Positions 1 through 63,881 of a DNA stretch of 64,000 bases are shown piece after piece. Position numbers and translations under genes: made by a program. This DNA comes from a virus (taxonomy: Duplodnaviria > Caudoviricetes), in IMG/VR virus record IMGVR_UViG_3300045581_000594, positions 717 to 64,716 of that record; one strand, given 5' to 3'. The notes below the pieces were generated by a model that did no database searches, was not told the DNA's origin, and saw only the letters and a program-made list of their open reading frames with translations. Position 1 is the stretch's first letter; every line of letters begins with the position of its first letter.

Positions 1-284
1 CACTCATGGCTCCCTCCTTCCACGGCGGCGAGGGCTTTATCGGCTATTGATACCAACTCTACGCTGCCGCGACATGCACAACAAGAAGATCCTTCTGCAA
101 TCTTAAGCAAAGCCTCAGCCAGCCTGTCTCGTTGCTCGGTGACTGCGTTGAGTTCACGCTCTAGCTTTAAGCATAGCTCTGCCATGCGGTCGTAAGCATA
201 TTCGCTCATGTATCCGTCTATGCCGTCGAGGCAGTCGGATTTAATCATCGCATCTGTTCTCGGTGTGTCTGTTTCTGTATTCAT
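1..284 (-). CDS. DTPRTD-family small phage protein (stop codon truncated by window edge)
   Basis: Read by eye: MNTETDTPRTDAM...LERELNAVTEQRDRLAEAL...KALAAVKGGSHE; paralog of 661-1083 and 1076-1345. Confidence 0.8.
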   Translation of the reverse strand, partial: MNTETDTPRTDAMIKSDCLDGIDGYMSEYAYDRMAELCLKLERELNAVTEQRDRLAEALLKIAEGSSCCACRGSVELVSIADKALAAVEGGSHE

Positions 285-302
285 AATCTAATCGGTTAAA
301 TT

Positions 303-354
303 TTCGAACAGGTCGCATCAGTCGGCCTTTGGCGGCTGTGCTTGGCTGTTGGAG
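303..354 (+). mobile_element. attC-like recombination site 1
   Basis: R'' TTCGAAC (303-309), 5-nt spacer, L'' GCATCAGT (315-322), short stem-loop, L' GCTGTGC (335-341), 6-nt spacer, R' GTTGGAG (348-354); L''/L' pair with one extra base. Confidence 0.75.
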
Positions 355-668
355 CAAGGAAACGGACGCGAATCAAAACGCCATTTCCAAGGAAAAGTCA
401 GCGCGGCGAGGCTGTTTACTTTCCAGTAGCCAACAGGTCCATTCAGAATTATTCCGGGACATACCTCCCACAGTTCCGCTTCAATGCCGTTGTCGGTCTT
501 GCCGGGATATTTACTCGCCCACTCCCGATATACGGGGTCTTCATCCATCATGCGGGAGACCCACTTCTTGGCTATCGCCACATCATTAGGCGGTAAAAAA
601 GCTCCAACAATGCGATCCAGCGAATCGGCACCCGCTGGGCTCTCAGTGGTTTTCAGGTCATTACTCAT
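318..668 (-). CDS. Hypothetical protein, cargo of the attC cassette (antisense to attC orientation)
   Basis: 116-aa ORF coupled to the upstream stop (ATGAGTAA); begins in attC2 and ends in attC1. Confidence 0.75.
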   Translation of the reverse strand: MSNDLKTTESPAGADSLDRIVGAFLPPNDVAIAKKWVSRMMDEDPVYREWASKYPGKTDNGIEAELWEVCPGIILNGPVGYWKVNSLAALTFPWKWRFDSRPFPCSNSQAQPPKAD

Positions 669-733
669 TTGATAGGTTCCTTTCTTCGGCAGAGTTGGTT
701 GAGGGTGCCGATCCCTGATCGCTGACGTTCGTG
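602..733 (+). mobile_element. attC-like recombination site 2
   Basis: R'' CTCCAAC (602-608), spacer AATGC, L'' GATCCAGC (614-621), stem ATCGGCACCC/GGGTGCCGAT, L' CCTGATC (714-720), spacer GCTGAC, R' GTTCGTG (727-733); GCTCCAAC (601-608) is the exact complement of GTTGGAGC (348-355). Confidence 0.8.
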
Positions 734-1083
734 GTTAGGGATTGGATGGCTTCGCGGGCATCACTGTATTCTCCGCAACCGTCGCCAGTAATGAACGGCA
801 GACAGTTCCGCAGTGCCTTTGCCAGCCTGTCGCGCTGCTCGGTGACTTCCTTAATGGTATTCTCCAAGTGCTGATATTTTTCACACTGCCTTTCCATCCA
901 TTCTTCTTTAGACTCACCGTTGGCATACCAAGGCATCTCGGCACGGGCGGCGGTTAGTTCGCGTTCTATGGTGCGGCATAAGAAAGCATCTACTAATTGA
1001 CGATCATCACGCATGATTTCCATGCGCGTATCTTTCACGGTAAATACTCCTACGTCCGTCCTCGGTGTGTCTGATTCACTCAT
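661..1083 (-). CDS. DTPRTD-family small phage protein
   Basis: MSESDTPRTD...IERELT...VTEQRDRLA...IQSLTT; overlaps both neighbouring genes. Confidence 0.8.
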   Translation of the reverse strand: MSESDTPRTDVGVFTVKDTRMEIMRDDRQLVDAFLCRTIERELTAARAEMPWYANGESKEEWMERQCEKYQHLENTIKEVTEQRDRLAKALRNCLPFITGDGCGEYSDAREAIQSLTTNVSDQGSAPSTNSAEERNLSNE

Positions 1084-1345
1084 GGTCTTTAGTGGTTAGG
1101 GATTGAATTTCAGGATGTGCCGCGAGGAATCCATCAATAGTCATTTGCACTAAGACTCCACGTTTACACGCATCTGAAGTAACTGCCATCAATAAGCCAC
1201 GGACATCCTCAGCCAGCCTGTCGCGCTGCTCGGTGACGGCGTTTAGTTCTCGCTCAAGTTGTCGCCCTACATGGACTGACATTCCTGATCCTGCGTATGG
1301 CCATGCAGCCCATGCTTCATCTGTTCTCGGTGTGTCTGTTTTCAT
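1076..1345 (-). CDS. DTPRTD-family small phage protein
   Basis: MKTDTPRTD...LERELNAVTEQRDRLA...IQSLTTKDHE. Confidence 0.8.
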   Translation of the reverse strand: MKTDTPRTDEAWAAWPYAGSGMSVHVGRQLERELNAVTEQRDRLAEDVRGLLMAVTSDACKRGVLVQMTIDGFLAAHPEIQSLTTKDHE

Positions 1346-1533
1346 AAATCAATTATGTTGGTTATCATTACGGCGAAAGTGGACGATGCAAGCAGCGTCA
1401 TAGCCACATGAAAGCCAACCTCTGATCCGCGCTGGTCAAAATTAAATCCGCAACACCATGCGATAAACGCAGCGATGCAGCAGAAAAACACGAATAGAAA
1501 AATACCAAGCAGTATTCTGTATTTGAGGTTCAT
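1342..1533 (-). CDS. Small membrane protein (2 predicted TM helices)
   Basis: Two hydrophobic stretches; ATG at 1533 overlaps the upstream stop. Confidence 0.65.
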   Translation of the reverse strand: MNLKYRILLGIFLFVFFCCIAAFIAWCCGFNFDQRGSEVGFHVAMTLLASSTFAVMITNIIDL

Positions 1534-1715
1534 GGATCTCCTCCCTCCCATCGCAGCCCTACTTTCGAGAGGTAGCTGAGTAGTAAACTCTTGATCTTAT
1601 TGATGCGCTCGCGTTTTCGTAGTTCTCGTTCCCGCCGATTGGCGATAGCGTTCAGGAGTTGATAGGTCTCTATTTCGTCGCGTCCGAAGACAATCAATGG
1701 TTTGTTGATGCTCAT
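1530..1715 (-). CDS. Hypothetical protein
   Basis: 61-aa ORF in operon with A-rich leader. Confidence 0.55.
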   Translation of the reverse strand: MSINKPLIVFGRDEIETYQLLNAIANRRERELRKRERINKIKSLLLSYLSKVGLRWEGGDP

Positions 1716-1765
1716 ATTATTTTAGGTTACAAGGTTTGGTGTTTATTGGTTAGTTTGTTTTTCAA

Positions 1766-2842
1766 TTAGATCTTATCAGCTGCCTCTGGGGCGTTCACGA
1801 GGGTGGGCTTGATAAAGACGAGGCGTGTCTCTATCCTCCCCTTCCCGCAGCGGCGTCGAGCCATGTGCCCCCTTCTCCAGTGCATCTGCACAGATCCGCT
1901 GCCGCTCTCTCCGCTTTTTCTGTCGGAGCTAATGGAGCGGATACGCACTCCCAGCCAACGTGGTTGGAGAAACAGTAACTCACGTTTGCCATTCTTAGCC
2001 TTCCGGTGTTTTAATTTTTCAAGCCCGTCCACTAGCTCGATCTCGGCATTCATGGCGGTGAGTAGCTTTAACGCCCAGCCTACCGCTAAGGTTGCGGCGT
2101 TGATGCTTTCCTCGCGGCGGGCTTTGTCTTCATCTATGGTAAGACCATCAGCACTGTAAAGAGTGAAGGTATGGGTAGACGGGTCGGACACGACCCCCTC
2201 GGGAGTCACCAATAGCTTCGAGTAAAGACACGCCCCTTTGTTCGTGTAAGCAGTAACATAGAAGCGCGTTTTGTCGTCGCTTTGGTCTTTCGGAACAGTG
2301 AACCCGCAGGCTTCTATGTCCTTCAGACTCAAATGGGCACATCCGATCACAGTGATGTATTCATCTTCGCCTACCTGAATCGTGTCGTTCGGAATTACGA
2401 AGTAGCAGGACTTGAACGGGAGGCAAGCCTCGTTCTTGATGTTCGGGTCGGCCAAAGAATCGGTGCGCCCGAGCATCTCACACAGTCCCCTGCTCACTAC
2501 CCAGAAAGGGAACTCACAAGGCGCAGCGTAGCGGGAGACACACGTGGATGCTGTATGAGCTGTCAGGGCGTCAGCTAAGCGCACCCGATCTTCGTCAGTC
2601 ATAGCCAGATCAGCAATCTGAACCATCGCCTCGACAGACGCATATCCAATAGTGAACAAATCACGTAAGGCTGGCCATGAGATATACGAAGCAGGGATGC
2701 GGTAGTTGATGCCGGACAATCGTTTCAGAGGCGGAGTCGAGTCCACGATAACGTCGATGGTCGAAGCTACGACCTGTGTGAAAGCGGGATATGGCACTTT
2801 CGAGGCCGTGGCCATGAAGTCTAGGATGGGGTCTTTAGTCAT
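1766..2842 (-). CDS. Hypothetical protein with C-terminal HWRRGH motif
   Basis: 358-aa ORF; C-terminal MHWRRGHMARRRCG...LVFIKPTLV motif of a recurrent uncharacterised phage/plasmid family. Confidence 0.75.
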   Translation of the reverse strand: MTKDPILDFMATASKVPYPAFTQVVASTIDVIVDSTPPLKRLSGINYRIPASYISWPALRDLFTIGYASVEAMVQIADLAMTDEDRVRLADALTAHTASTCVSRYAAPCEFPFWVVSRGLCEMLGRTDSLADPNIKNEACLPFKSCYFVIPNDTIQVGEDEYITVIGCAHLSLKDIEACGFTVPKDQSDDKTRFYVTAYTNKGACLYSKLLVTPEGVVSDPSTHTFTLYSADGLTIDEDKARREESINAATLAVGWALKLLTAMNAEIELVDGLEKLKHRKAKNGKRELLFLQPRWLGVRIRSISSDRKSGESGSGSVQMHWRRGHMARRRCGKGRIETRLVFIKPTLVNAPEAADKI

Positions 2843-4175
2843 TGGTGATGCGGTGTAGGTTGTTGTATTTGGCGTGGTATTTGTCTAAGGCTTTCATCAC
2901 GGATTCCTCGACGGAACCTGCGGCAACGAGAACCCGTTGAAGGGCTGGAGACTTTGCTCCGGCACGATGGATGCGACCGAGCACTTGTCTGTAGGATTTG
3001 TAGTCGAAGGTCGGGGAGATCAGGCTGACCCTAGGGTGGCCCCCGTGAATGTCGTGGAGGGAGACTCCCACTCCACCCGCTGCGATGTTACAGATGATGA
3101 TCCGCGTGAGGTTGTTCTGGAACGATTGCACATGACGCTCACGTGAATCAGGATCTTGTCCTCCCACTACAACCGAGACATCGATCTTTCTCGTCTGGAA
3201 CACATCAAGCAGGGCGGCTACCGAATCTTTGAAATTCACGAAGATCGCAACGCTGTAGCCCTCTTCTCGGAGATCCATTGTCATCGTTTCGATCTCAGGG
3301 ATTTTCGCAATCTCCGCATACTGACGAGCGCGAAGGATCTCGGTGAGCGTGTGCGCTGAAGTAGGAGCTTCTCCCCCTGCTTCTTCGATCTGCTCACGCT
3401 CGATCATGGTTTCAACGATCTCAGGGGTGACGCCCAGCAATTCGTAATACTTCTGTATCTCTTTGGCAGAAGCGAAATCCAGCGGTTCGGTGATAATGTG
3501 GTTCTCGGTAAACGCATTAGGCAGGTCGGCAGCAGAAAGCCTACGGCAGTTCTTGCTGTAGAGTTGTTCTCCGAGCTGCTTGATCTTGTTTGGGATTCCA
3601 CCCTTCCAGTTGTTCCAAGGGTCACGGCGACAACCAAGCTCTTTCATCCAGCTGAACCAGCTGGGTTTGCCGTTGTGGGCTTTTTGAAGGCTATGCAGCC
3701 CAAGGGCATATCCGATAGCCCTCATCTCCGGAGGGGAGACGCATGCCGTTGCGCTGAGCATCAGGTTGTAACACCCGCCATCCACAGCGGCGATAAGCAT
3801 CGCCGAGTTCTGGGTGAAGGCTCCGGCACATTTGTGCACCTCGTCCCAGATCACCAGACAGTTTGAAGGTCCGGCCCATTTGAACGAACGTCTGCCGACT
3901 TTGGTGAACACGGAGTTTCCTCGGCGGAGTTTCTCGTAATTCGACACGACGACGACGTTCTTGACTCCGCGCTCGGCAAGCTCTCGCTTCCATTGCGGGA
4001 TGACGATCTTCATACAAACGACAACAACGGGCAGCCCTAGCTCAACGGCGACCGCAGCCGATATGACAGTCTTGCCTACGCCAGTTGCGGAGGTGTCGAG
4101 TGATGAGTTGTACCACAAAAGATTTTTCTTGTGGGCGTCGACGGAATCGCGCTGTGCTTGGAAGAGTTGTTTCAT
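2835..4175 (-). CDS. Superfamily 2 DNA helicase
   Basis: Walker A TGVGKT, DEVH, SAT and motif VI QVLGRIHRAG. Confidence 0.92.
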   Translation of the reverse strand: MKQLFQAQRDSVDAHKKNLLWYNSSLDTSATGVGKTVISAAVAVELGLPVVVVCMKIVIPQWKRELAERGVKNVVVVSNYEKLRRGNSVFTKVGRRSFKWAGPSNCLVIWDEVHKCAGAFTQNSAMLIAAVDGGCYNLMLSATACVSPPEMRAIGYALGLHSLQKAHNGKPSWFSWMKELGCRRDPWNNWKGGIPNKIKQLGEQLYSKNCRRLSAADLPNAFTENHIITEPLDFASAKEIQKYYELLGVTPEIVETMIEREQIEEAGGEAPTSAHTLTEILRARQYAEIAKIPEIETMTMDLREEGYSVAIFVNFKDSVAALLDVFQTRKIDVSVVVGGQDPDSRERHVQSFQNNLTRIIICNIAAGGVGVSLHDIHGGHPRVSLISPTFDYKSYRQVLGRIHRAGAKSPALQRVLVAAGSVEESVMKALDKYHAKYNNLHRITND

Positions 4176-4495
4176 GCGCTGATCGTTTCTTTTTGGTAGG
4201 TATTGAACCCGAACTCACTGATGGTGTTGAGTGCGCTTTTGGTAAGCTCGCCCTTGCGCCAACTTCTGGCGTTGTCCACGACCTCTTTGAGAGCCGCCAA
4301 TCTCTCCACCGCATCCTCAAGGGCAGCCTGTCTGCGATCTCTGGCTGTTCCTGCTACGGCTTCGGAGTATCTGGGACGCTTTGCCGAGGATACATATTGG
4401 ATGAATCGATAACCATTACGGCTAAGTCGAATGGAGAAGCCATCGAAAGAGTGCTTCTTTTCTGTCATTTCAGTGATATTTCTTGGGGTAGTCAT
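4172..4495 (-). CDS. Hypothetical basic protein, possibly AP2-like DNA-binding
   Basis: 107 aa; beta-beta-alpha-like pattern; overlaps the helicase start; fold call is weak. Confidence 0.55.
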   Translation of the reverse strand: MTTPRNITEMTEKKHSFDGFSIRLSRNGYRFIQYVSSAKRPRYSEAVAGTARDRRQAALEDAVERLAALKEVVDNARSWRKGELTKSALNTISEFGFNTYQKETISA

Positions 4496-9561: not shown

Positions 9562-9727
9562 TTTTGACGTCTCAGAAAAGTTCGAAAAGTTTTTACAAAC
9601 CTATGTAATGTAGGTAATGTATGTAATTCTATTAAGATATGTTAAAGGAATTACATGAATTACATACATTACCTATATATAGAGAATTTTTATAAGTAGG
9701 ATTTTCAGGAATTGGAAGATTCAAACG
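9562..9727. repeat. AT-rich palindromic element, copy 1 (direct repeat of 40019-40185)
   Basis: Near-identical to 40019-40185; perfect 19-bp inverted repeat at 9611-9629/9657-9675. Confidence 0.95.
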
Positions 9728-9913
9728 ATTGTTCTATTCCTGTATCCTGTGACCTGTTTCCTGTGAAAGTTGATTCATGAAAAATAAGTCATGCTACATG
9801 TTGCAGGATACAGGTTACAGGGCTCACCGCTGGGGCGTTCCGTGGGGTGAAAGTTATTCTTGCGTTTGTCTTGTTTCTGTATTAGAAATTGACAGGTCTA
9901 ACATTTGAACCCT

Positions 9914-12949: not shown

Positions 12950-15900
12950 ATGCTGGAAATCAAACCATTTAGCGTCTGGTCGCAAGACCACTCCGACACC
13001 CCACCTACTGAGCAATATCGTGGATACTCCACCTACTTACGCTCGTCCCACTTCAAGAACGGAACGCTAAATGAGCAGACCGAGAATGAAATTAACGAGG
13101 GCATGTATCAGAAAGCTGTTGCTGACGGCTTGATTGCTGAGGACGCACCTGATGAGGAGAAGGAAACTGTCTTCAGATCTTTGACTGGGGCTGAGCCAAC
13201 TGATCCCAGTTTTACGAACGCTCAGTTCTTACCTGATTACTTGAGAAGTAAGTTTGATCGCAACTCCGCCGAGTATGCCCAAGCCGGATTGGTCGAGACC
13301 TACTTGTCAGCTAAACGGGTAAATTCTCCACTTGCCGAGCAGCACAAGGCGTCGATTGAGCCGCTGCTGGCGAATCAGGAAATGATTACCGCCGCTCGGA
13401 AAGCTGCTGTTGATCGTGGGGATATGCAGGTTGTGTCCTACACCAAGCCTGATGGGTCGAAAGGTTTTCATTTCGGGGCAGACACCACTCGTGAGTCTCT
13501 TTCGGGTAAGGTGGATTCCTTGCTGGCGTTGGGGGCACTCGATGCGACAGATCTGAAAGAGGTCAATAGCTATCTTGATCCGCTGAACGGAGGGGTCGCC
13601 AACAATGCCCAAGCTGTTCGGGCTGATGCCGCTTTCAGATTCTTGGACGAGACAATCAAGTCCGACCCTGCCCTCAAGAATAATTTCAACAACGCCGTTC
13701 AGAAAAGGCGTCGCCGTGAGCAGGTGGCAGGCATGACCACAGGGGAGCGTATTTTCGACGTTGCCAAACAGGCAATCGCCATCCCGTTTGAGGCTGCTGC
13801 GAATCTTGTCGTCGGGACAGGACAGGCTGTAGGTGAGGCTTTTGGAGCCGAGTATGCACCCGAAGAGGCCCCAGCCTCTGCCGATCTCACGAAGGCCAAA
13901 GATGCCCTTCGTTCCAATGGTTACTCGGATGCGGAGATCGAGCGATATGTGACCGATTATACCAAGCATATGACGGGCCCTGTCTTTCGTGCGGACAACC
14001 CTGCTTCGGGTATCGACACTGATAGTCTTGGAAACGTGCTGCTCGCCCCTGAGCTAATCAATCAGGCGGTGTTTGACAAGGCTCTGGAAAGTGCCCCACT
14101 GAACGAAGCACAGAAGGCTCAGGCTCCCGAACAGCGTAAGCTGATGCTGGAGAGAATGACCCCCGAATACATGGATTTGATTGTGGGCGAGTCTACGGAG
14201 GCGTTGGATGCCTACACTAAGGCTAAGGCCAGCGGGATCTCTGATTCGGCATTTGTGGAGTCATGGTTGAATGACCCCAATAACTACAGCGGTTTCTCCG
14301 AGCGACTCCAGCAATTCGGTTTGTCTACTGTTTCCGCAGTTGCCCAACCCCTGCTTGGTGTATTTGCTCTGGGTGGGTCTGAAAGTGCTGCCAAAGGTTT
14401 GGCTGCGCTCAATCGTGAGGCTGGTCAGCGTCAGAAGTATTCTCGCCTTTTCGGTGATGAGTACGGTCTCGGGTTCCAAGTTGCAAACACCCTCCCTCAA
14501 GTTGGTGCGGACATCCTTCTGTCTGTCGGAACGGGTGCTGCTTATACGGCGGCCAAGACAACAGCTTCCACAGGCATTAAGAGTGTCCTCCGCAGTGCAG
14601 CTAAACAGGCTGTGGCTGATGTCGGAGAAGATGCCGCGTTGGCGGTATCTCGTGCGTCTACCTTGACGGGTAGCACTTCGGAAGCGTTCAGTAAAATGTC
14701 CCAAGGGTTGACCAAGACTTTGGGGCTTACGGAGGCATATGCCCCGATTGCGGCGTCATCGTTCATGCGGTCCGCCTCTTCTACTTACGGCCAGTTGTAT
14801 GACGAACTGCCCGAAGGCATGTCCCATGAGGAGAAACATAAGGCGGTCTTGGGGACTTCTATGCTATCTGGTATGTCTACTATGCTGACAGTCGTTGGCA
14901 TGGGCTTGATCGGCCGAGGTGGTGTGGAGGATCTCGCTACTGGCGGCGTACGTATCGGAGGCAAGACTGTGCCGATGGACAAGCTGACCTATCGCCAGAT
15001 GAAAATGCTGGCTGATGAGACGACCCCCGTTATCAATAGGCTTACCGACAAGGCGTTCCAGCAGGCTCTTCGTGGGTCAATGGGTAACGCTTACCGAAAC
15101 TTCTTCAACCAAACACTCAAGGGTGGTTTTGACGAGTCGGTCGAGGAGATGCTCGATCAGGCTATCCAGATGAAAATCACGGATGCCTACAAGAATCAGG
15201 ACACCCCATTCCACGAGTTTGCCAATCAGCTGTGGGTTGCGGGAGTTGTCGGTGGTGCTCTCGGTGGAGGCATGGGGGCAGGGGCTCAGCTCTTGTCTCG
15301 CCCTACAGAGAATGACGCTATCCGTGCGGCAAGCGCACGTTACGATCTATTGAGCCGCGCCACAGAGCGGTTGAAGGCTTCTGGCTCTCCCGTCACCGCA
15401 TCCTTGCTTGAGGAGCGTATGAACGAGGCGGCTCAACGTCTCGCTGAGGAGCGCACAGCCAAGGCTACCAGTGACGCTCAGGCTTTGCAGAACGCTGCCG
15501 CCACACCTGCATCCTCTACTCTGAATCCTGATTTCGGTGTAGCGACGGAAGATCCGGATATCCCACGCCCTGCCTATACCGAACTGCTCACGGATCTTGA
15601 GGGGGAGCAGGTCATGCACGGCCACTACAAAGGACGCGTCGTGCTTGAGGAGGATCAGGCTTATCTCGAATTGGACAAACCTGAATTGGACGCTAACAAA
15701 CAACAGTTCACCCGCATTCATTTAGGTAACGCAGTCGATGTCGCTTCCAAGCATGTGTCCCGTTCTTCAAAGTTCAGGGTGACCGATGCTCCTGTCGGCA
15801 GTATACCAGCAGGCACTCCGTTCTACCAATATGGTAAAGGCGTAAAGGGCAGATATGCCCTACCTGACCCTGCAGCAACTAACTTGGATGCGGATTTCAC

Positions 15901-18900
15901 GTTCCATCGAGATGAGAATGGTGAGATCAAGTCTGTTGTTATCAACACCGCTCGTAACTTTGACAGACCGGATGTCGTGTTCCCTCGCACGATCACTGCT
16001 CCTGCGGAACTACGTGTGCTCGGACGCATTTACGGGTTCGAAGTAAGCCCCAATACGGGAGCTGCTTCCAGACCTACGGCCGGAACTGCTGACTTCAGGT
16101 CTGTCAGGGCGGTAGCTAAGCCTGCTCAGTTGGAGTTCTCATACGACCCAGTTGCCGCCAAGCAAGGCAAGAAAGCTGCGCCTTCGTGGTCTATCGGGCA
16201 GAATAAAGACGATCAACCGATCATCTCAATCCCCCGTGCTAAACAGGGGGATAAAGTCATTCTATTACCACCAACAGGAGAACAAAGACCCGGTGCTGTT
16301 CAGGTTGTCTACAAAGAAGATAATACAGTAGACTACCTTTTCTTTCCGAACACCTTGACTGCAGGGCAAAACCAACCCACTGCTTATTTCGAGACCGACC
16401 CTGAGCGTATCCAACAACTTGCTTCCTTGTATAACCTCCGGCTTTCCGAGACCGATGGCCCGTCAGAAGCATTGATCGATGATGGCCACGCCCGTTTCGC
16501 TTTCCTCGACACTATGGCAGGAGCCCAGCTACCTCCACTTCCTGTAGTTAACCCAGAGGCGGGAGCCGCCCCAGAGGAAGCCGCTCCAGCTGTCATTCCA
16601 GTCGGCGAGGGTCAGATGGAATTGGGGCTTGATGGCGACGTTCCTGATTATGCCGATCGGGTTTCTAAAGCGGGCATGGCGAAAGCTGTTGTCGCCGCTG
16701 CTCGTCGTGTTGAAGAGCTCAAAGCGAAAATGCCTGCATCTGCGAAGGCCGATGCGGCGGCACTTACTGCCGCTGAAAATGGGGTAACCCGTGCTCGTGC
16801 TTCTTTGCTAACTGCACAAACTCAGTTGGAGAAGGCTACGGATAAAACCCGTGATGCGCGTGAGGCTACTGTGGCTACTCGTTTGAAACAACTTACGGAC
16901 GCAGAGCAGAAACTTGCTGCAGCACAGCAGGCTCCTAGCTTAGTGATGACTCGTGCGATCAAAGAAGCTGAACGCCGTCTGAAAGATCTTCAAGATGCGT
17001 CAGCCAGAACAGAGGCTGGAGAAGTAATTCATTTATTAGGCGAACGTCTCACTCCTGAGCAGAAAATCGAATACAGCTCGGCGGTCGCTGCGGCGTATCC
17101 TGTTGAAGAAAGTTCGGAAGCGATAATTAATACTATCCTGAGACTCGACCCGACCTCCAGAACCCGCACGGCTCGTCGCATTGCTCAGCAGACTTACGCC
17201 GACTTCACCCCAGAGCAGATCGGGGGTGCATTGGCACGAGCAGAAGCCATGATTGATTTCGGTGTAGCCCGTGCGGAGGACGGCAGTGTCCCTATCGAGG
17301 TTGCCCGTGAGATCGTATCCGCAGGTGAAACTATCAAATCTCGTATCGCTGCTTTTCAAGGGATTGCCGTTGATGAAGAGGCTCGCCGTATAGCCAAGCT
17401 GGTAGAAGATGCTGGGCAGGCGTTGCTTGCTCAGTACAACGCTGATGTAGAGAAGGCTAACCCAACACCTTCGGCTCCCGCCGATACTACACCAGAAGAG
17501 ACCTCTCCAGAAGAAGGGGTAGCGATCACTGTCGATTCCTTCCCAGAGGTTCTCGCTCGTTTCAACTCGCTGATTCAAGAGTATAAAGAAGCTGTGCTTT
17601 ACGCTGAGGGGGCTGCTATTGCTGAAGGTAAGTCGCCGAACGCTAGGGGTCGTGCTGTTACCAAGGTTAGAATACCTATTCAGCAGGAGCTCAGAGCTGA
17701 GGCTAATCGTATTATTAACCTAATCAGACAGAACGACGACCTTGAAGAGAGTATCCGTGCTGAATTCGAGACCGAAGTGTTACGCACACTAGGCCGTAAC
17801 TTCGATAAGGCGTTGAGTAATCTGCTTCAAACCAAGCGGGAACTTGTCACTATGCGTGGGGAGAAAGCAGTAAAAGGCGTGGTCCGTGAGACAGGAAAAG
17901 GCTTCCGTACGAAACAGGAGAAAGCCGTGTTTGAAATGCTGGCTGCGAATGGTCACGTTGTATCCGACCTTACCTCCACGGGGGCTATGTTCCCCGACCA
18001 TCGCGCTGTAATCAACGACGTTGTCTACAACGCCTTCACGATGTCCACCCCCGATCTTCAGGAGGCAGGAGATAAATACTACAAACCATCTGAGTACATC
18101 AAGACGAAGAACCGCATGCTCGCCGAGCGTGTGCAGGAGCTTTACCCTGAAGTGGGTTACTTGAGTCCGGCGGGAGCTGGTGGCTACTACTATGTAGTAG
18201 GCAAAAACAAATTCCCCACTGTGTATGCAACGGGAGTCAAGGGGTCGATGCGCGTCTTGAAAAAAGATGGAGACCCAAAGAATGCGGCAGACTTCACGTA
18301 CGTCAAAGGTGCATATGCTCCATATGTGTCTTCAAATCGTTACACGGATTCGACTGAGGTATCTGGGATCTTTACTAATAACCCAGTAGCTGTTCGTGCC
18401 CAGTTGGCGATGAGGATGTCTATCGCCCCTGCTCCCACATCGTTTGCTAAAGGCAAACTGAATCCATCTATTGTTCTAAACGGAAGACAAGCTGTTGGTT
18501 ATTACATGCCGTGGGATTCTGAAAGGACTAACCCGTTTTATGGAGACTCCAAACCCGTCGATCCTCGTTTCACTCATAACTCGGAGACTTCCGACGAACC
18601 CCAAGCCCGTGTTCGTAAATCACGGCGTGCCGCCGAGGCTTTGTTCCTACTAGGAATGAAGGAGCCGTCTCGCAGGTCTGTGTGGTCTACTCAGTTTAGT
18701 GAAGAAACGAATAAGCTGTATAAAAGGACTTCTGGAAAACTTGATCTCAACGCAGGCTCTAAAGGCTCGGTGGATACAAGACTCCCACTCACCGCTACCG
18801 GAATGGATAATACGGTTATCGGGGTGCTCAAGGAGTATACTGTTCAATTCAACGAGTTCAGACTTGCCCAACTGCTGACGCAGTACGTGGCTAAGCAGTT

Positions 18901-21900
18901 AGTGAAGCAAGTTCGTAAGGGGCAGGAACTCTCTCCGGACATGCAGGCTTATATGGAGGCCAAGGATCTGGGTGCTATCTCAACAAAACCATCCGAACTT
19001 AAACGGATTGTTGAGATGTACGCCAAAGGACCAGACGGGTCGTTCGCTCCTGCTGCCTCGTCGGTAAACATCACAGCATTTCTGAAAGATATTTTTTCTA
19101 GGATGACTATCGAAGAGGTAGCAGATCACGTAACTACGATGTATCCGGATACAACGCACCCAGAAGTAACTGGAGTGTTGATGAACTACGCCATGAAATT
19201 GCTGAAGTCCACCGCTGTGGACGGGGCTTACTACGCTGCACCTACAGCGGACGACACGATGCGAAGATCCTTCAACCGCATTGCTAACACTCAGGCAAAA
19301 AGAGAACAGCGCAGCTTCTGGAAGGAAGGAGAGCAAGTTTCATTCGATGAGTTGTTTGATGACGAGCTGTTTGGGATGGAGAACTCCAATGCTATTCAAT
19401 CTGAGTTCAGAGGGGACGCCCCTCCCGTGGCGCAGCCTTTGAAAGGCAGCGTCGGTAGGGCGTTTGAAGCGGCTGGGTTTAATGTAGACCCAGTATGGGA
19501 TGGGGTATCTTCCATTGAACCGATTCGCTTACCCGCAGAGTCGGAAGATCCTATTTACTACACCCGCAGCGAACTTTTGACAGACGATTTCCGCAAAGCG
19601 GTAAGGGAGAATCCTACCATTGCTTCGCTAGTAAAACAACTGGCACTGAAACTTGATCCCGAGTTGGCTGTATTGAGTGGTGTCGAACTCCTGTCGAAGT
19701 TGAGTGCCAAGGTATATGAAGGCGTACTCAAAGGAGACCCGACAGCCTATCAATTCGTAGCCAACCTCCAGTCGGAGCAAACAGGAACGGGGGCGATCGG
19801 TAAGAAACTGGCCGCTCACTTGGTTCTTTCGGGATGGCTACCTCCATCGAAAATCTATCAAGCCGCCTATGTCGGTCGCTCAGGAGCTACTGCAGGTATT
19901 AGAGTTGCTGGGTCGCAGATCACCCGTCTCGGGTTCCTGTCTCCCTCGGAGCATGAGGTTTACGTGGGGGCCACGTCTGATATGACGACAGAGGAGATCC
20001 TTGCTCGGGGGGCTCGTGCCCGAACAGCGTCGGAGATTGAACAGAAAAATGTGAAGGATCGGTTTACCGCAGCCTACGGGGTAAACGAATCCGAAGCCGC
20101 CCGCCAGAATGACGCGTTTATGGACGCGGCCAGACTTGCTCAGTCCACTGTGATGTCGCTCAATCGCGAGAGGTATCAAGCGATGGCGGAAGCCAGTGTC
20201 GCCCAACGTCGGGTCGAAGGTCTGCGTGAGCGTTTAGTCTTGCTCGCAGGCAGTGACACGTTCACGAATGCGGCCGAAGCTATCCAAGCCGCTGAGGCCA
20301 ATAAGCAAAACGTCCTCCGCAGCTTGCGTAAGGAGTCGGCTGACCTTTACGGACGTGCCAGAAAACTCGACAAACAGATTAAGGAAGCCTCCGAAAGCGG
20401 AGCAACTTTGCCCAGACTTCTCCAACGTCGCAAGGAGTTCTCGGCCATGCTGGCTGGGACACGTAAGATTCCTAAGAACTCCAACGCAGAAGATGTTGCC
20501 GCCCGCATCAGCGGATTGGATCAGGTGATTCTCCGTGTGGAGGCTATGTCTCACCCAGAGAAGATGGCCTCGATGAGAGCGGAAGCCCGCAGTTTGAGAG
20601 CGGAAGGTAGGACTAAGGCCAATCAGGTGTCTGAGTTTAAGAATATGGATACCAGATCCGTATTGCTGAGAACAGTACAGGAGTTGAGCGAGTTCAACAA
20701 GAAGGCCGTAATGTCGGAGCTTGCTGTCAACATGCTCACCAAAGAGGCGAAGGAAGTATTGCTTCTAGCCCGCACCCGTCCTTACCAACTGCTCGCCGAT
20801 CTAGCGAAGAACGACCCCGACTACCTGAAAGCTAAAGCTAAGATATCTCCGCTTACCAGTGAGGAGCGGGGCATCCTGCAACGTGCGGCCGTCGAAAAGT
20901 TGGACGCCGTTAGGTCGAACGAGAATCTTTCTAAAGCTCATTCAGCACTAGGTAAACTGCTCCGTGAAGCGGGGTATAATGTAAGAACTACACAAAGACA
21001 ACAAGGTGCTACTGAAGATCTGTTTGTCGTTCCTGACGCTCCTGTTATCCCGCCACCACCAGCGGGAGTCACTGAGTTTATTTCCCCGAGTCTTGGGGTC
21101 CCCGCAGAAGGGGTTGTTTTCCAATCACCTGTGATCGTTCGACCAGAGTGGGAGACCAGAGAAAAAGGGTTTATGTGGGACCGCCGAGAAGTTACCCATT
21201 CGGTTGACGAGGATGGTTTCATCTCGGCAAGGGTTGTCTACACATATCCTTCTGGTGAGACATCGGAGGAGACGCTCCGTGGAGCGAAAGCTTCTGATAT
21301 CTTGGTGAAACGGGAAGTCAGAGCGGAAGGGGAGCAGACTGTCATTGAGTATACGTACTTTGATGGGTCTACCGAATCCGAGATCATGGATGGACTCCCG
21401 AGCACTGGTATCGAAGACTCCGATTTCACGTTGCCGCCGACAGACACCAACCCCAACTTCAGGTCGGAGGCGAGGACTTTGGGCGTCCAAAGAGCCAGAA
21501 CCGCAGAGGCTGCTGAAAGAGAAGCCGCCTTAGCGCGTGCCGCTCAGGTCGACCAAGAACAACCAGCAGATACCGAACAGCCCGCCGAACAAGCTGAAGA
21601 GCAGCAAGAGCCTTACTTCAATCAAAGGCAAGCAGCTGCGCTGAGTAATCCTGAAAACTTTAGACCTCAATTAGGCAGGGTTGAAGGAGAGCTGACTGGC
21701 GGATTGACTTACGATGAGTGGCAGTTTGTGTATGACTACTACACGCAGGAAAGAGAGGATGCGATTCAACGTGAGAACCCTGAAGCATTCGCTCCTCGTT
21801 TAGGCAGAATCGACACCGAAGCACTGGCGAAGCGTCTGAAAAAGAACGATCAAGTAACTTCCAGAAACGGATTGTTCTTCTCCGCTGGCGTGTTCACCAA

Positions 21901-24900
21901 ACAAACCCAAGCCGAGATCGTCGCAGCCAACAAAGCCGAGGCTTCTCGTCTCGGACTGGTAAATGGGGATGCCTCCAGTGTCGTAACTGCCCTTCGCAAC
22001 ATTGCTAAATCCGGCGGAGTGATTCAGAAAGCGGTTGCTAATATGTTACTAGCCAATGGGGATATCGTTGCTGGCACGAAGTTTGTAATGACTGAACTCA
22101 ACAGCTCCGAGGCAGGGTTCTATTCTCCGGAAGATAACACAGTCGTTATCAACCTAGACGGCACAAACGGCCGAGGTCTTGCGGATGTTCTGCTCCATGA
22201 GTATACCCATGCGGGAACAATCGAGTTGCTCACACGCCCACGCACCGCTGCTCAGCGTGATGCGATCCAGCGTCTTACCGCTCTTAGAAACTTGACTTCT
22301 CAGATAGCGGCTGAGCGAGGCATCGACTCCGCTGTGTTCCGTGCTGGTCTGGCGAACAACGCAGAGTTCATCTCTTACGCCCTGACTGCTCCTGAGTTTC
22401 AATCGATCCTCGTGAACATGAGTCCTCCGTCCCAGCGTTCGGTATGGCGTCGTATCCTCGACACCATCGCTGACTTCTTCGGTGTGTCGAGGGAGCAAGT
22501 GAATGCTCTCGATGAGATTCTTAACTTCGCTACTATGGCGTTCACTACTCCGAACACTTTCGGAACCACGTCCACCCTGCAATCTGCTCGTGATGAAGAT
22601 CGCCGAGCTGATGAGATGAACCACGACGTAATGATCGCCCAGTCGAATCGCTTCACCACAGCGTTTGATGTGCGCGAGCCATCGACTCCTTCGGTGGAGG
22701 AGCAACAACTAGCCACGCAAGGAGATCTCGTATTCGATACCATAGGGGCTGCCCGTAGTGCATTACCACAAGGTGTGGAGCTGGTCGAAGACCAGCAGCT
22801 CGAAGGGATCGCTGGGTTCTCCCGTGCAAATCCTACTCAGATAGTTGTCAATCCTGATTACTTGGCACAAGCAGTCAGAGGACTGCCCGCCCATAGAGCT
22901 GCGGCAGTTGTCCGCTCTACGATCGACGAGGAGGTAGCGCACATGGCATCCGATGCTGTATTCTCAGAAGCAGACTATGCGGATATCGCAGAGATGCTCG
23001 GGAACAGCGGCCTCAACCTTGTGGCCCATGAGTATTACTCACTCAAGTATCCGTCCTTCGCCGAGCGTTCCGCTGCGATCAGAGCTGATCGGGATTCCGG
23101 TATCCTGTCCGATGTGACCCTAGCCTCCGAGTGGACTCGGATGCAGGTATCGCGTATGGCTACAGGCACTACCCGTGAGCGTGATCTGGACATGATCCTA
23201 GATAATAAATCATTAGTAGATAAACTGATTACTGCGCTACTGCGTTTCGTTGAAACTCTTCGTGAAAGATTTGCGCTTTCCCCTACCGCTTCCACAGCGG
23301 CGAAGATCTCACAGGCTTCTCGCATGATGCGTCGCCTTCAGAATGACGGAGCCATCCCTGCCCCTGAGTCCTCACCCGAAGGTGAGATGGGCGACACTAC
23401 CTACCTGCTTGCGGCTCTGAGCAATCAGACAGTCGAAGGACAGGAAGATAGAACATCGTTCGCTGCCCCCATCGCAGCCATAGACCCAGATAAGAAGTCG
23501 TTCATCGAACGCTTCTGGGATAAACTCGGTGAGCGTGGGCGCATCTACAACATGCCGACCGCCTTACGTGAAGTGTATAATAATCGTGCAGGCGTGCTCA
23601 GCACCGCCCAGTACGACATTCAACTCTTCAACAAGAAGTTCTCCAAACTGCGTGACTCCGCACTGGCAGACGGGATACCTATGGAGGATCTCATGGTTGT
23701 GCTCGGGACCACTGAGCCGATCATTAAGACCCCCGTCCGTGCGAAGATCGCTTCCGATCTGCGTGCGTTCGGTAGAACCCTCAGCCCACAAGACCCTGCC
23801 CGTGAGGACAAGATGCGTGAGAAAGAGAACGAGCTATACCAACAAGCAGCCCACGAGTTTGCCGCAGACTTCCGCCTCAAGCAAGAGGAGATGGAGAAAA
23901 GGCTCCGCAGCAGGGGTCACTCCGAAGTTGTGGACCTGATGGTAGAGTTCAGGAAACAAATGAACAAGCAGAAAACCATTGTCAACTGGGACTCCACGAA
24001 TGATGTGTATCTAACAAGACACTATCGTTACTACGATACCCCCGGCTGGCACATGGCTGTACGCAACGGGACAGTGTTCACCGATGACACGGGAACCGAG
24101 GTTGACTTCGGTGCTCGCAGGCTGGTCGCTGCCAGAAGTTTGTATATGGAAGAAGCAATGGCTGACCTGAGCAGGGAGGGTATTAAACCAACTCAAGATC
24201 TGCTGGACCAGCGTGTGCTTGTCAAACTGGACGAACACCTAGATAGCTTGGACAAGATGCACGCGGAGGAGTATTCCGAGAGCATGGCAACCAGCATCAG
24301 GCAAGACCCGAACCTTCTCAAGAAGAAAAACGAGGTCGACGCCTCGCTCAGGGGGCTACTCGGTGAGGTCAAAGACCCGCTTGAGGTTGCCGTGAGAACG
24401 ATGCACAGCCTGAGCCGTATGGCAGCGAACAAAACGTTCTACGAGAACTTCGAGAAGATCGCCATCAAGCAGGGGCTCGCTTCCTATACACCACAGGATG
24501 GAATGGTTTTGCTATTCCCTTCCCGTCAGTCCGATAGGTACGGCACGCTCGCTGGGCTGCATGTACGCAACGATATTGCGGCAGCTCTGCGTGAGGAACT
24601 TCAACTTCAGCTTGGACAGGGAGAAGCCAACGCTACGAAGGCTATCTCAGGACTCACCAAAGGGTTCGCAACCTTCTCCGGTTTGTCTATCACAGCCAAG
24701 ACGGCCCTCGGTGTGGGTTACTGGACACGTAACATCATCGGTGGTGGTGTGTTGAGCATTACTCAAGGACTGTCACCTCTTTCCCGAGACTCCATTGCCA
24801 GCTTCAAGGCTGCGTTTAAGGGCAACTTCCTTGGGGCTGAGTCCGACGAGAATCAGCGTGAAGTTATCCGCCGTCTGACTGAGCTTCAGATCCTCCGTGA

Positions 24901-39157: not shown

Positions 39158-39233
39158 ATGTCTTTGTCTTTCTTAATTACTTGAAGGTGATTAAGCGGAT
39201 CGCATCGTCCGATCGGATACCAGCGAATCTGCA

Positions 39234-39389
39234 TCCTGAAACAGGAATCAGGATACAGGGTTCAATCTCCCTTCACAAGTAAGGGACTACACCTACCCGC
39301 AATCCTTTCCCGTATCCTGTATCCTGCACCCTGATTCCTGATTCCTGAACCACTAGATATGGTAGAGGATACAGGATACAGGCTACGGG
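39234..39389. repeat. Heptamer (CCTGTAT-like) repeat cluster in both orientations
   Basis: Six tandem units at 39309-39350 (cccgtat cctgtat cctgcac cctgatt cctgatt cctgaac); inverted units at 39239-39264 and 39366-39389. Confidence 0.85.
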
Positions 39390-39548
39390 TGGGGGGTCAA
39401 ATTTTTCTGGAAACAGGTATAAATACAACCATGTGTGTAAAAAATAATTGAAGATACCCATACCTTGTGCTATCAAGGGGTGTGTCCACACCATATGTGG
39501 GGGTGTACCGATGATTTTCCTTATTTCACACCAAGACCAATCCAAATT

Positions 39549-40018: not shown

Positions 40019-40185
40019 TTTTGACGTCCCAGAGAAGTTTGAAAAGTTTTTAGAAACCTATGTAATGTAAGTAATGTATGTAATTCTATTAAGATATGTT
40101 AAAGGAATTACATGAATTACTTACATTACCTATATATAGAGAATTTTTATAAGTAAGATTTTTCAGGAATAGGGAAATTCAAACG
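40019..40185. repeat. AT-rich palindromic element, copy 2
   Basis: Direct repeat of 9562-9727 with scattered substitutions. Confidence 0.95.
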
Positions 40186-40216
40186 CTTGCTTTAATTCAT
40201 GTAATGCAAAAAAGAA

Positions 40217-63434: not shown

Positions 63435-63881
63435 TTAAGGATGATCTGGGGTGACGGGTCTTTTTACTCGATCGTCGGTAAGCGTATCACACGCATAGGC
63501 GTCAAGAAGAATACAACACCCAGCTGCGATATGAGCAATATGAGATCTGCCAGACTCTGGGTCAAGGTCCTCCCCATCACGCCACGCATTAAGATGACGG
63601 AGGATGGCGTGCACGTAAGTATTGGTCACCACTCCGGTCTTCCTCCAGTTGTATTCCCCGTATTTCTTCGCTCCGAGTTTGAGAACATGGGCAATTTCCT
63701 CCATTGCTGGGGCGGGAATTAAGCCCAGCGGCGTCTTTTTGTTTCCCGCCTCTTGCTTGGGGTCTACCCCTCGTGCTGTATTTTTTGTGGGGTGACGCAT
63801 CAGTTTATCATACCCCTCATCGGAATACATGTCGGCCTCTCCGACTCCGTTGTGGCGGAGGGTCTGCGGTTGGTCACTCAT
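63435..63881 (-). CDS. DUF5664 (dATP/dGTP diphosphohydrolase-like) protein
   Basis: GAKKYGEYNWRK...ILRHL.AW.DGEDLDPESGRSHIAH. Confidence 0.88.
   Translation of the reverse strand: MSDQPQTLRHNGVGEADMYSDEGYDKLMRHPTKNTARGVDPKQEAGNKKTPLGLIPAPAMEEIAHVLKLGAKKYGEYNWRKTGVVTNTYVHAILRHLNAWRDGEDLDPESGRSHIAHIAAGCCILLDAYACDTLTDDRVKRPVTPDHP

Follow-up and report, generated by a model that had tools for sequence, protein, structure and literature searches.

A covarying hairpin family at gene borders of phage small-gene arrays, most copies of which are read in one frame by the gene upstream

The left end of a phage genome recovered from a freshwater metagenome carries a minus-strand array of small genes, all read leftward, in which two hairpins lie across gene borders (Table 1). 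We analysed bases 717-64716 of this 64,716-bp IMG/VR record (IMGVR_UViG_3300045581_000594); the whole 64,000-nt stretch is the window, and positions are those of the window unless another record is named. The record has an 85-bp exact direct repeat at both of its ends and the genome is rated complete. Hairpin 1 is one copy of an element that we call E1, and hairpin 2 has a similar layout. The original prediction, made from the letters of the stretch, took the two for integron attC sites ('attC1' and 'attC2') that double as coding sequence and flank an excisable cassette, the 'cargo' gene. Comparison among copies shows E1 to be a conserved, covarying hairpin family, and most of its copies are entered in a single reading frame by the gene upstream.

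Genes A, B and C of the array encode members of one small-protein family (F), which has no Pfam or PHROG name, and the cargo gene stands between B and C. In related phages the arrays likewise interleave family and non-family small open reading frames (ORFs), and there as here most borders overlap by 4 or 8 bases.

Table 1. Features of the left-end array, in window coordinates (aa, amino acids)
Feature	Position	Strand	Remarks
Gene C, 94 aa, F family	3..284	(-)	MNTETDTPRTD..VTEQRDRLAE..AVEGGSHE, then stop
Spacer (A/T-rich) and leader, E1 to next start codon	285..306	(-)	
Hairpin 1 ('attC1'), E1 copy	307..350	(-)	AAC 350-348 opens, CTGTT 311-307 closes, stop TGA 320-318 in 3' arm
'Cargo' gene, 116 aa	318..668	(-)	core residues ~29-103 (nt 584-360) conserved
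ATGAGTAA start/stop overlap, genes B and cargo	661..668	(-)	-8 type junction, recurs in these arrays
Hairpin 2 ('attC2')	606..729	(-)	foot AACG/TGTT at 729-726 and 609-606; arms 722-703 and 633-612; 69-nt loop
Conserved 3' block of F genes, CAATCCCTAACCACGAAC	727..744	(-)	reads QSLTTN; nearly all copies use identical codons
Gene B, 140 aa, F family	661..1083	(-)	after QSLTT-N an unusually long 22-residue tail, VSDQGSAPSTNSAEERNLSNE, then stop
Gene A, 89 aa, F family	1076..1345	(-)	N-terminal TPRTD, middle ERELxAVTEQRDRLAE, C-terminal QSLTTKDHE, then stop
69-aa ORF	1342-1551	(-)	membrane-transporter family matches, weak, sub-threshold
Two further array genes	outside window (genome bases 1-716)		

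All that had been described in the sequence of this locus is indeed present. Both hairpins lie where they had been placed, and the triplets proposed as crossover points are both in-frame Asn codons, AAC 729-727 in gene B (..QSLTT-N-VSDQ..) and AAC 350-348 in the cargo (..PCS-N-SQAQPPKAD, then stop). The loop of hairpin 2 holds the stop codon of gene B (TAA 663-661), a purine-rich AAGGA stretch and the ATG of the cargo (668-666), with the ATGAGTAA overlap, and hairpin 1 carries the C-terminus of the cargo together with its stop codon. The arithmetic of the proposed excision is also correct: deletion of 349-727 would join base 727 to the codon at 347 and read LTT-N-SQAQPPKAD and stop, which is a matter of frame arithmetic only, and the hairpin 1 left behind would have the foot CGAACAG/CTGTTCG, as claimed. 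One small further point speaks for this prediction, in that the ACG-AAC of gene B joined to E1 would give the foot usual in the family, where the present copy has a C and most of the listed copies have a G.

From the window alone, neither hairpin and neither in-frame AAC exceeds chance. The fold z-scores of the two sites as DNA were -1.6/-2.2 and -1.3/-0.04 (as RNA, -2.7 and -1.7), and the sites rank at the 33rd-37th and at the 15th/57th percentile among 3,758 windows tiled over the 64 kb. The 10-bp perfect inverted repeat is 24th of 55 such pairs, and AAC is frequently in frame (5 of its 10 occurrences in gene B and 3 of 5 in the cargo gene, or 8 of 15 overall). These ordinary values fit the explanation that the hairpins are chance inverted repeats at ordinary overlapping borders. 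Against it, hairpin 1 turned out to have 47 copies with covariation, conserved boxes and a fixed frame, which refutes chance for this hairpin, and hairpin 2 has two further copies that keep the arms while the loop changes; we regard chance as very improbable. Our own initial reading, in which these were coupled junctions in a mosaic array of paralogues with hairpins arising by chance, was replaced after the comparison with metagenome contigs.

That comparison revealed that short DNA blocks shared between metagenome contigs and window 1-1800 end at the two points singled out by the original prediction, 350/351 and 729. A block from 270/280/291 to 350/351 was common to five contigs from three runs, two of them deeper than the phage itself, and when the window was compared by BLAST with fetched viral loci, homology likewise ended at 350. 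In those loci, a sequence of ~55 nt recurs after unrelated genes and ends ..NSQAQPP[K/Q][V/A][D/G] and stop. We built a covariance model of this element, E1, from ten close copies. The model matches the window at 293-356 with 84.4 bits, the sole copy in the genome with filters off, and it yielded 23 matches, diverged copies included, in a subset of the loci. A two-box pattern found 43 viral stretches, and overall we count 47 distinct E1 copies in IMG/VR contigs.

The copies share one layout: [C/A]G followed by AACAGCCAAG, two stems of 3 and 6 bp and a loop, and on the return strand one bulged base between the stems, then GAC and CTGTT. The outer stem AACAG/CTGTT (5 bp) and the unpaired bases of a 4x3 internal loop are conserved in sequence, and the terminal loop is variable, with lengths of 3-4 nt up to ~50 nt. 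Over the 23 model matches, cells of the inner stems were paired in 96% of cases, compared to 77% in shuffles and at most 45% when the partners were slid by 1-3 columns. In the inner stem, both sides change in 8 of 9 pairs, and cells with double changes numbered 54 (15.5 expected), a count matched by 0 of 500 shuffles. The loci found by pattern only range in GC from 0.41 to 0.67 and just 4 of 34 bear the F family; thus, E1 is not tied to one phage group. Genomes carry 1-5 copies with several genes between them, as in a complete 38-kb genome (G001) with five matches and at least two ORFs between neighbours.

As far as Rfam and limited literature searches go, E1 is previously uncatalogued, which does not establish that it is unpublished. 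Several candidate matches were set aside. BLAST also matched E1 in two Rhizobium phages, in a stretch that runs antisense within an HNH gene and has no stem, and we judged this chance or degenerate. In Rhizobium phage RHph_Y21 (MN988544.1; L193:1500-1540), antisense within an annotated HNH endonuclease gene, 18 nt are identical to the E1 5' box together with part of the stem, but a proper hairpin and the 3' box are absent, so that this is either chance or a decayed copy. Plasmid matches were short and weak, and matches to a 10-mer of the E1 box in one paper proved to be cloning-vector primers.

Most of the genes ahead of E1 enter it in one frame. Of the 47 copies, 38 have at least 40 open codons upstream in the frame that reads AAC AGC CAA (frame 0), whereas frames 1 and 2 are open over this length in 9 and 13 copies. 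The reading frame at homologous sites, which had been proposed as the check on the original prediction, is thus not random. Blastp sorts the 38 upstream ORFs into 37 clusters, with no F-family member among them. The downstream ORFs form 27 clusters, with 7 of 38 in the F family. Genes enter as ..[C/A]G followed by AAC AGC CAA G.. and end Asn-Ser-Gln plus 0 to 10 residues; the frame-0 tail is 13 codons or shorter in 45 of 47 copies, with the stop usually within the hairpin. From the hairpin to the start of the next ORF the median distance is 28 nt (range 8-124), and an A/C-rich leader stands before that start codon. In variants that read NSQAD.., frame 2 stops after 3 codons (QPS and stop), yet frame 0 is used: four of the five such copies examined have a long frame-0 ORF and the fifth is cut by a contig end. 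Selection for short tails is thus not enough by itself to account for the frame. The hairpins do serve as coding junctions too, in a frame that is conserved. The ORF upstream of E1 in three loci (L094, 7024-7596; L156; L158) carries a DEWLTP motif like that of phage Dam-type methyltransferases, and may encode a DNA methyltransferase.

Hairpin 2 is a rarer structure, which the E1 covariance model does not detect. It has two other copies, on a lagoon contig (run X3) and in L203. The lagoon contig shares 604-729 with 9 substitutions and 2 indels, all of them in the loop and none in the arms. In L203 the 13-bp core arms are kept and the loop differs, the ATG of the next gene again lies in the loop, and the 3' arm is read AGADS as in the window. 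These copies give moderate support, by comparison, for hairpin 2 as a conserved element.

The genes flanking these hairpins are themselves modular. A word-index protein search returned 97 F-family homologues, and together the 101 fetched viral loci (L001-L101) and the phage's own genome contain 177 F ORFs, 147 of them unique. F proteins consist of three conserved blocks (TPRTD, ERELxAVTEQRDRLAE and QSLTT[N/K]) that separate two variable segments, and the variable segments combine in many ways, including complete two-by-two sets. The joining blocks are kept even at synonymous sites. Among copies of VTEQRDRLA found by a fully degenerate pattern, codon AGG is used in 97/100 (background frequency 0.09) and CTG in 94/100 (0.22); in QSLT[TP]N, the counts are CAA 32/32 (0.50), TCC 31/32 (0.20), CTA 32/32 (0.10), ACC 30/32 (0.34) and AAC 32/32 (0.65). 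Since AAC is invariant in this last block, the Asn after LTT is a family-conserved residue. The QSLTTN 3' block is similar to the A/C-rich leader that stands ahead of starts in these arrays, and this would explain its conservation at the DNA level.

Breaks of homology lie near these blocks. The homology of gene B to its relatives ends after the AAC of the QSLTTN block, and the segment that it shares has a different gene after it in each of three phages, the break falling after ACGAA[C/G]. Ends of shared-DNA blocks lie within 15 nt of a conserved F block in 36% of 638 cases, compared to 13% for random positions, in a set whose pairs are not independent. The C-terminal tails of F proteins are 3-5 residues in 38 of 55 and 9-23 residues in 13 of 55, so that the 22 residues of gene B are near the long end. 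The middle F block (window 1207-1260) has a depth of 220/603/12/1444 in four metagenomes, in which the phage's own depth is 43/9/3/0. A search for the F motif in genome contigs matched 49 stretches with one real member, on a contig of a Phycisphaerales metagenome-assembled genome, which is a weak hint, from sequence, at the host of the phage.

We also noted stereotyped protein ends (..TNQNEL, ..NEP and ..[HND]E, each followed by stop) at borders in window 1-1800 and in L002, L035, L036 and L155. Such ends seem to arise where translation runs through the conserved A/C-rich leader and through start/stop overlaps of the ATGA or ATGAGTGA type, in which case the DNA before a start sets the last residues of the upstream protein.

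The cargo itself is, judging by its conservation, a real gene. Although a word-index search matched the cargo protein alone, a full HMMER search gave 15 matches including the cargo itself, and 12 aligned homologues of 62-189 aa cover its residues ~29-103; the family is small. In the predicted structure the core is confident, and residues 1-26 and 101-116 have low prediction confidence (pLDDT). Residues 1-28 and 104-116 are extensions absent from the 12 aligned homologues, and these poorly modelled, non-conserved termini are precisely the parts encoded by the hairpins. Comparison of the predicted fold with PDB and BFVD returned no similar structure at E <= 0.001. In looking for loci of cargo relatives, a degenerate-motif search gave 0, two metagenome scans gave 0, and a viral scan with the cargo protein returned nothing usable. 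A viral scan with the relative P0099 gave partial matches only, which we rejected (L152, an unrelated T4-like context; L151 and L153, the same partial match).

We considered that E1 might be a purely RNA-level hairpin, for intercistronic processing, 3'-end protection or a terminator-like function, accompanied by a start-associated leader, with the frame a by-product of selection for short tails. The 38 frame-0 copies are placed accordingly: they lie in sense orientation at the 3' end of the ORF, and the next start follows at a median distance of 28 nt. E1 occupies one of the few non-overlapping borders in otherwise overlapping arrays, T-runs are present after the L156 copy and after hairpin 2, and frame 0 is the frame that usually has its stop inside the hairpin. 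The closest parallels of this explanation are the T4-type PeSL cassettes and the SAS/ESAS of mycobacteriophages: some phages are known to have conserved intergenic cassettes through which genes are shuffled as well (PMC2839356), and others conserved start-associated repeats with an upstream inverted repeat of unassigned role (PMC3203893). Other results weigh against RNA. Frame 0 is used even in the NSQAD.. variants in which frame 2 stops sooner, and an RNA model leaves it unexplained that 37 unrelated genes share one entry frame. Most E1 copies are without a following U-run, a simple terminator scan had no minus-strand entry at either hairpin, and Rfam 15 gave 0 matches at the gathering score over the whole window and 0 at E up to 5 over 200-800. 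G.U pairs are very few and the sense strand has no stability advantage. We therefore hold this purely RNA-level explanation to be quite unlikely.

The pairing data lean in another direction. Nearly all E1 stem pairs are Watson-Crick, with 12 G.T among 581 minimum-free-energy pairs and 2 wobble cells compared to 54 double changes, and the two strands fold about equally, the sense strand being more stable in 14 of 36 sequences and the antisense strand in 20 of 36. Since wobble is scarce and the strands are about equal, DNA fits better than RNA. This favours the original prediction in its full form, in which E1 and hairpin 2 would be true attC sites, single-stranded DNA substrates of a host integron integrase (solo attC sites, or clusters of attC sites lacking integron-integrases, CALIN), and the 379-bp cassette at 349-727 would be excisable in frame. 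The architecture of E1 fits the published description of attC in its AAC/GTT foot, its unpaired spacer and extrahelical bases, and a terminal loop that varies, and attC sites are recognised by structure with few conserved bases (PMC5371416); like them, E1 is an imperfect hairpin conserved in structure (5-bp outer stem, 4x3 loop, 3+6 bp stems and bulged base). Interchangeable cassettes would need just such a fixed frame, closed by a stop whatever the variant. Virulent phages do carry attC clusters without an integrase, IntI1 recombined 5 of 6 tested sites, and methyltransferases are reported as phage cassette cargo (PMC9892861).

Nevertheless, E1 is not shown to be an integron site, and we judge the attC identity unlikely on several grounds. 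The phage's own complete genome (G000) gave 0 candidates for IntI or any tyrosine recombinase (TIGR02249, PF00589; controls positive) in a search outside which a host enzyme would lie, and serine and Y1 recombinases were also not found in it. The complete genome with five E1 matches has no tyrosine recombinase, and just 1 of 5 E1-bearing records has one. At the claimed crossovers, the consensus GTTRRRY is matched at 1 of 4 degenerate positions at 727 (GTTCGTG) and at 3 of 4 at 348 (GTTGGAG), and the pair RYYYAAC..GTTRRRY occurs nowhere in window 1-1200. Across the family, the foot is [C/A]G-AAC...GTT-C: the base beside AAC/GTT is G/C and not Y/R, and the triplet alone is kept. Most E1 copies span 43-46 nt from AAC to GTT, or 51-54 nt with full R boxes, which is below the 57-141 bp quoted for attC (PMC5371416), although a few long-loop copies reach this range and hairpin 2 spans 124 nt. 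The unpaired spacer of E1 is strongly conserved in sequence (CCAAG / GAC). Instead of one site per cassette, there is one E1 in the 64.7-kb genome, and elsewhere several genes lie between copies.

The proposed excision fared no better. No joint of 349 to 727 was found in metagenome contigs of four runs, and its product, an F gene running into E1 with the end N-SQAQPP, is present in 0 of 55 F tails, and 0 of the 38 ORFs upstream of E1 are of the F family. A contig joint of 272 to 726 was rejected, as its sides are only 23 nt and it reads as another family gene pair. Joints between linkers were likewise rejected as signs of excision; their sides are short and they reflect the high community copy number of conserved F blocks.

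What remains of the predicted plug-in design is the junction. A coding hairpin entered at an in-frame AAC does supply the tail and stop of the upstream gene (the 38 copies in 37 clusters above), and the coupled start lies in the loop of hairpin 2 both in the window and in L203, while integron attC identity and excision are not supported. We consider it somewhat probable, on balance, that E1 copies are adaptors at array borders, which close unrelated genes in one fixed frame with the stop inside the hairpin and are followed by the leader and the next start. The comparison shows that unrelated genes enter E1 in one frame and end at the stop within the hairpin, with the leader and the next start codon downstream, where the next gene would be restarted; hairpin 2 has a similar but rarer layout, its loop holding both the upstream stop and the next start. 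As judged from sequence comparison, the hairpins would then be both junction adaptors and edges of exchangeable gene modules, which may be why their flanks are unrelated from phage to phage.

Several points count against the adaptor explanation. Nine of the 47 copies have no long frame-0 ORF (some lie at contig ends), and in one of them (L036:9088) the upstream gene stops 6 nt before the AAC. Covariation was counted on an alignment fitted to the model, which favours structure, and many copies were found by patterns that fix the conserved boxes, so that the invariance of the boxes is partly built in. An edge of homology at the AAC is expected for any conserved element and is thus no proof of a crossover. 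RNA runs are absent among the listed sequencing runs that contain the stretch. Hairpin 2 has three copies only, and the one in L203 has its 5' arm in a different reading frame and lacks the outer AAC/GTT foot.

How such an adaptor acts is a separate matter. It may be an RNA hairpin in a polycistronic message, with a role in processing, in protection of 3' ends or as a terminator-like signal and with exchange by ordinary recombination, which we think possible though short of probable; that it acts as a folded single-stranded DNA recombination site, with an attC-like architecture and an enzyme supplied in trans, is a tentative suggestion to which we give slightly less credence, and what is left falls to some other mode of action. 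More doubtful is the stronger proposal that E1 is a natural protein-coding, structure-specific recombination site, through which a pool of modules across base compositions is joined in trans and in frame, at or beside the AAC/GTT foot. If true, E1 would be a phage counterpart of the integron, in which the frame-0 stop lets any module plug in behind any gene with the operon intact.

Elsewhere, the genome encodes a DNA polymerase, a helicase, a DUF2800 nuclease and a primase-like DUF5906 protein, as well as a single 4,486-aa ORF (window 12950-26410, plus strand) whose sole PHROG match is 'virion structural protein' over residues 3765-4295. No tRNA genes were found in the genome, a near-identity DNA search with window 1-4200 matched nothing in phage and plasmid collections, and the small ORFs had no significant match to Pfam or PHROGs. 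A CAGGATACAGG unit recurs in dense, nested repeats, both direct and inverted, in intergenic DNA near strand switches (window 39233-39395 and 9739-9814); these repeats are iteron- or operator-like in appearance. An inverted repeat of 22-37 nt (ATGTAGGTAATGTATGTAATTC type) occurs at two strand-switch regions (window 9608-9695 and 40059-40205) and could be a shared promoter, operator or origin motif. A 148-aa ORF (window 63435-63881, minus strand) matches the N-terminal domain of dATP/dGTP diphosphohydrolases (PF18909, E 1e-31), enzymes that accompany phage genomes with modified bases (2-aminoadenine).

Phage accessory regions are highly mosaic, and how new genes slot into them without wrecking expression is largely unknown. 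If recombination does take place at E1, this would be the first folded site of that kind in nature to serve as coding sequence as well, and it would bear on the question of how gene cassettes form. If it is an RNA element, it would represent a new widespread class that couples the termination of one gene to the expression of the next.

Of described systems, attC, PeSL and SAS/ESAS come closest to E1, which is not a tested member of any of them. Like integron attC sites, E1 is an imperfect hairpin that keeps structure over sequence, lies at the 3' end of unrelated genes and occurs in phages without an integrase (PMC5371416, PMC9892861). In contrast to attC, it is translated in a fixed frame with an internal stop, its spacer is conserved, it is shorter, its feet depart from the R-box consensus and no integrase partner of it is known. 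With the T4-type PeSL, it shares the form of a short conserved stem-loop between small non-essential genes that marks sites of insertion, deletion and replacement (PMC2839356). PeSL, however, are intergenic promoter-plus-terminator units that act by homology between copies and form mini-circles (PMC2839356), whereas E1 overlaps a coding end in one frame and its stems covary rather than stay identical; a consensus scan, outside which other host promoter types would fall, found no sigma-70-like promoter or terminator on the minus strand at 285-360 or 600-730. The SAS/ESAS of Cluster K mycobacteriophages resemble E1 in that a motif lies just before many starts, accompanied in about half by an inverted repeat with a variable spacer, and they are thought to concern translation initiation (PMC3203893). 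Unlike E1, ESAS have half-sites conserved in sequence and belong to one phage cluster, and reading in a fixed frame by the upstream gene is not reported for them (PMC3203893). Finally, synthetic attC sites placed in coding sequence combine, as E1 does, a folded site and a peptide code on the same DNA (PMC7439510); those sites are engineered and recombined by IntI1, whereas E1 is natural.

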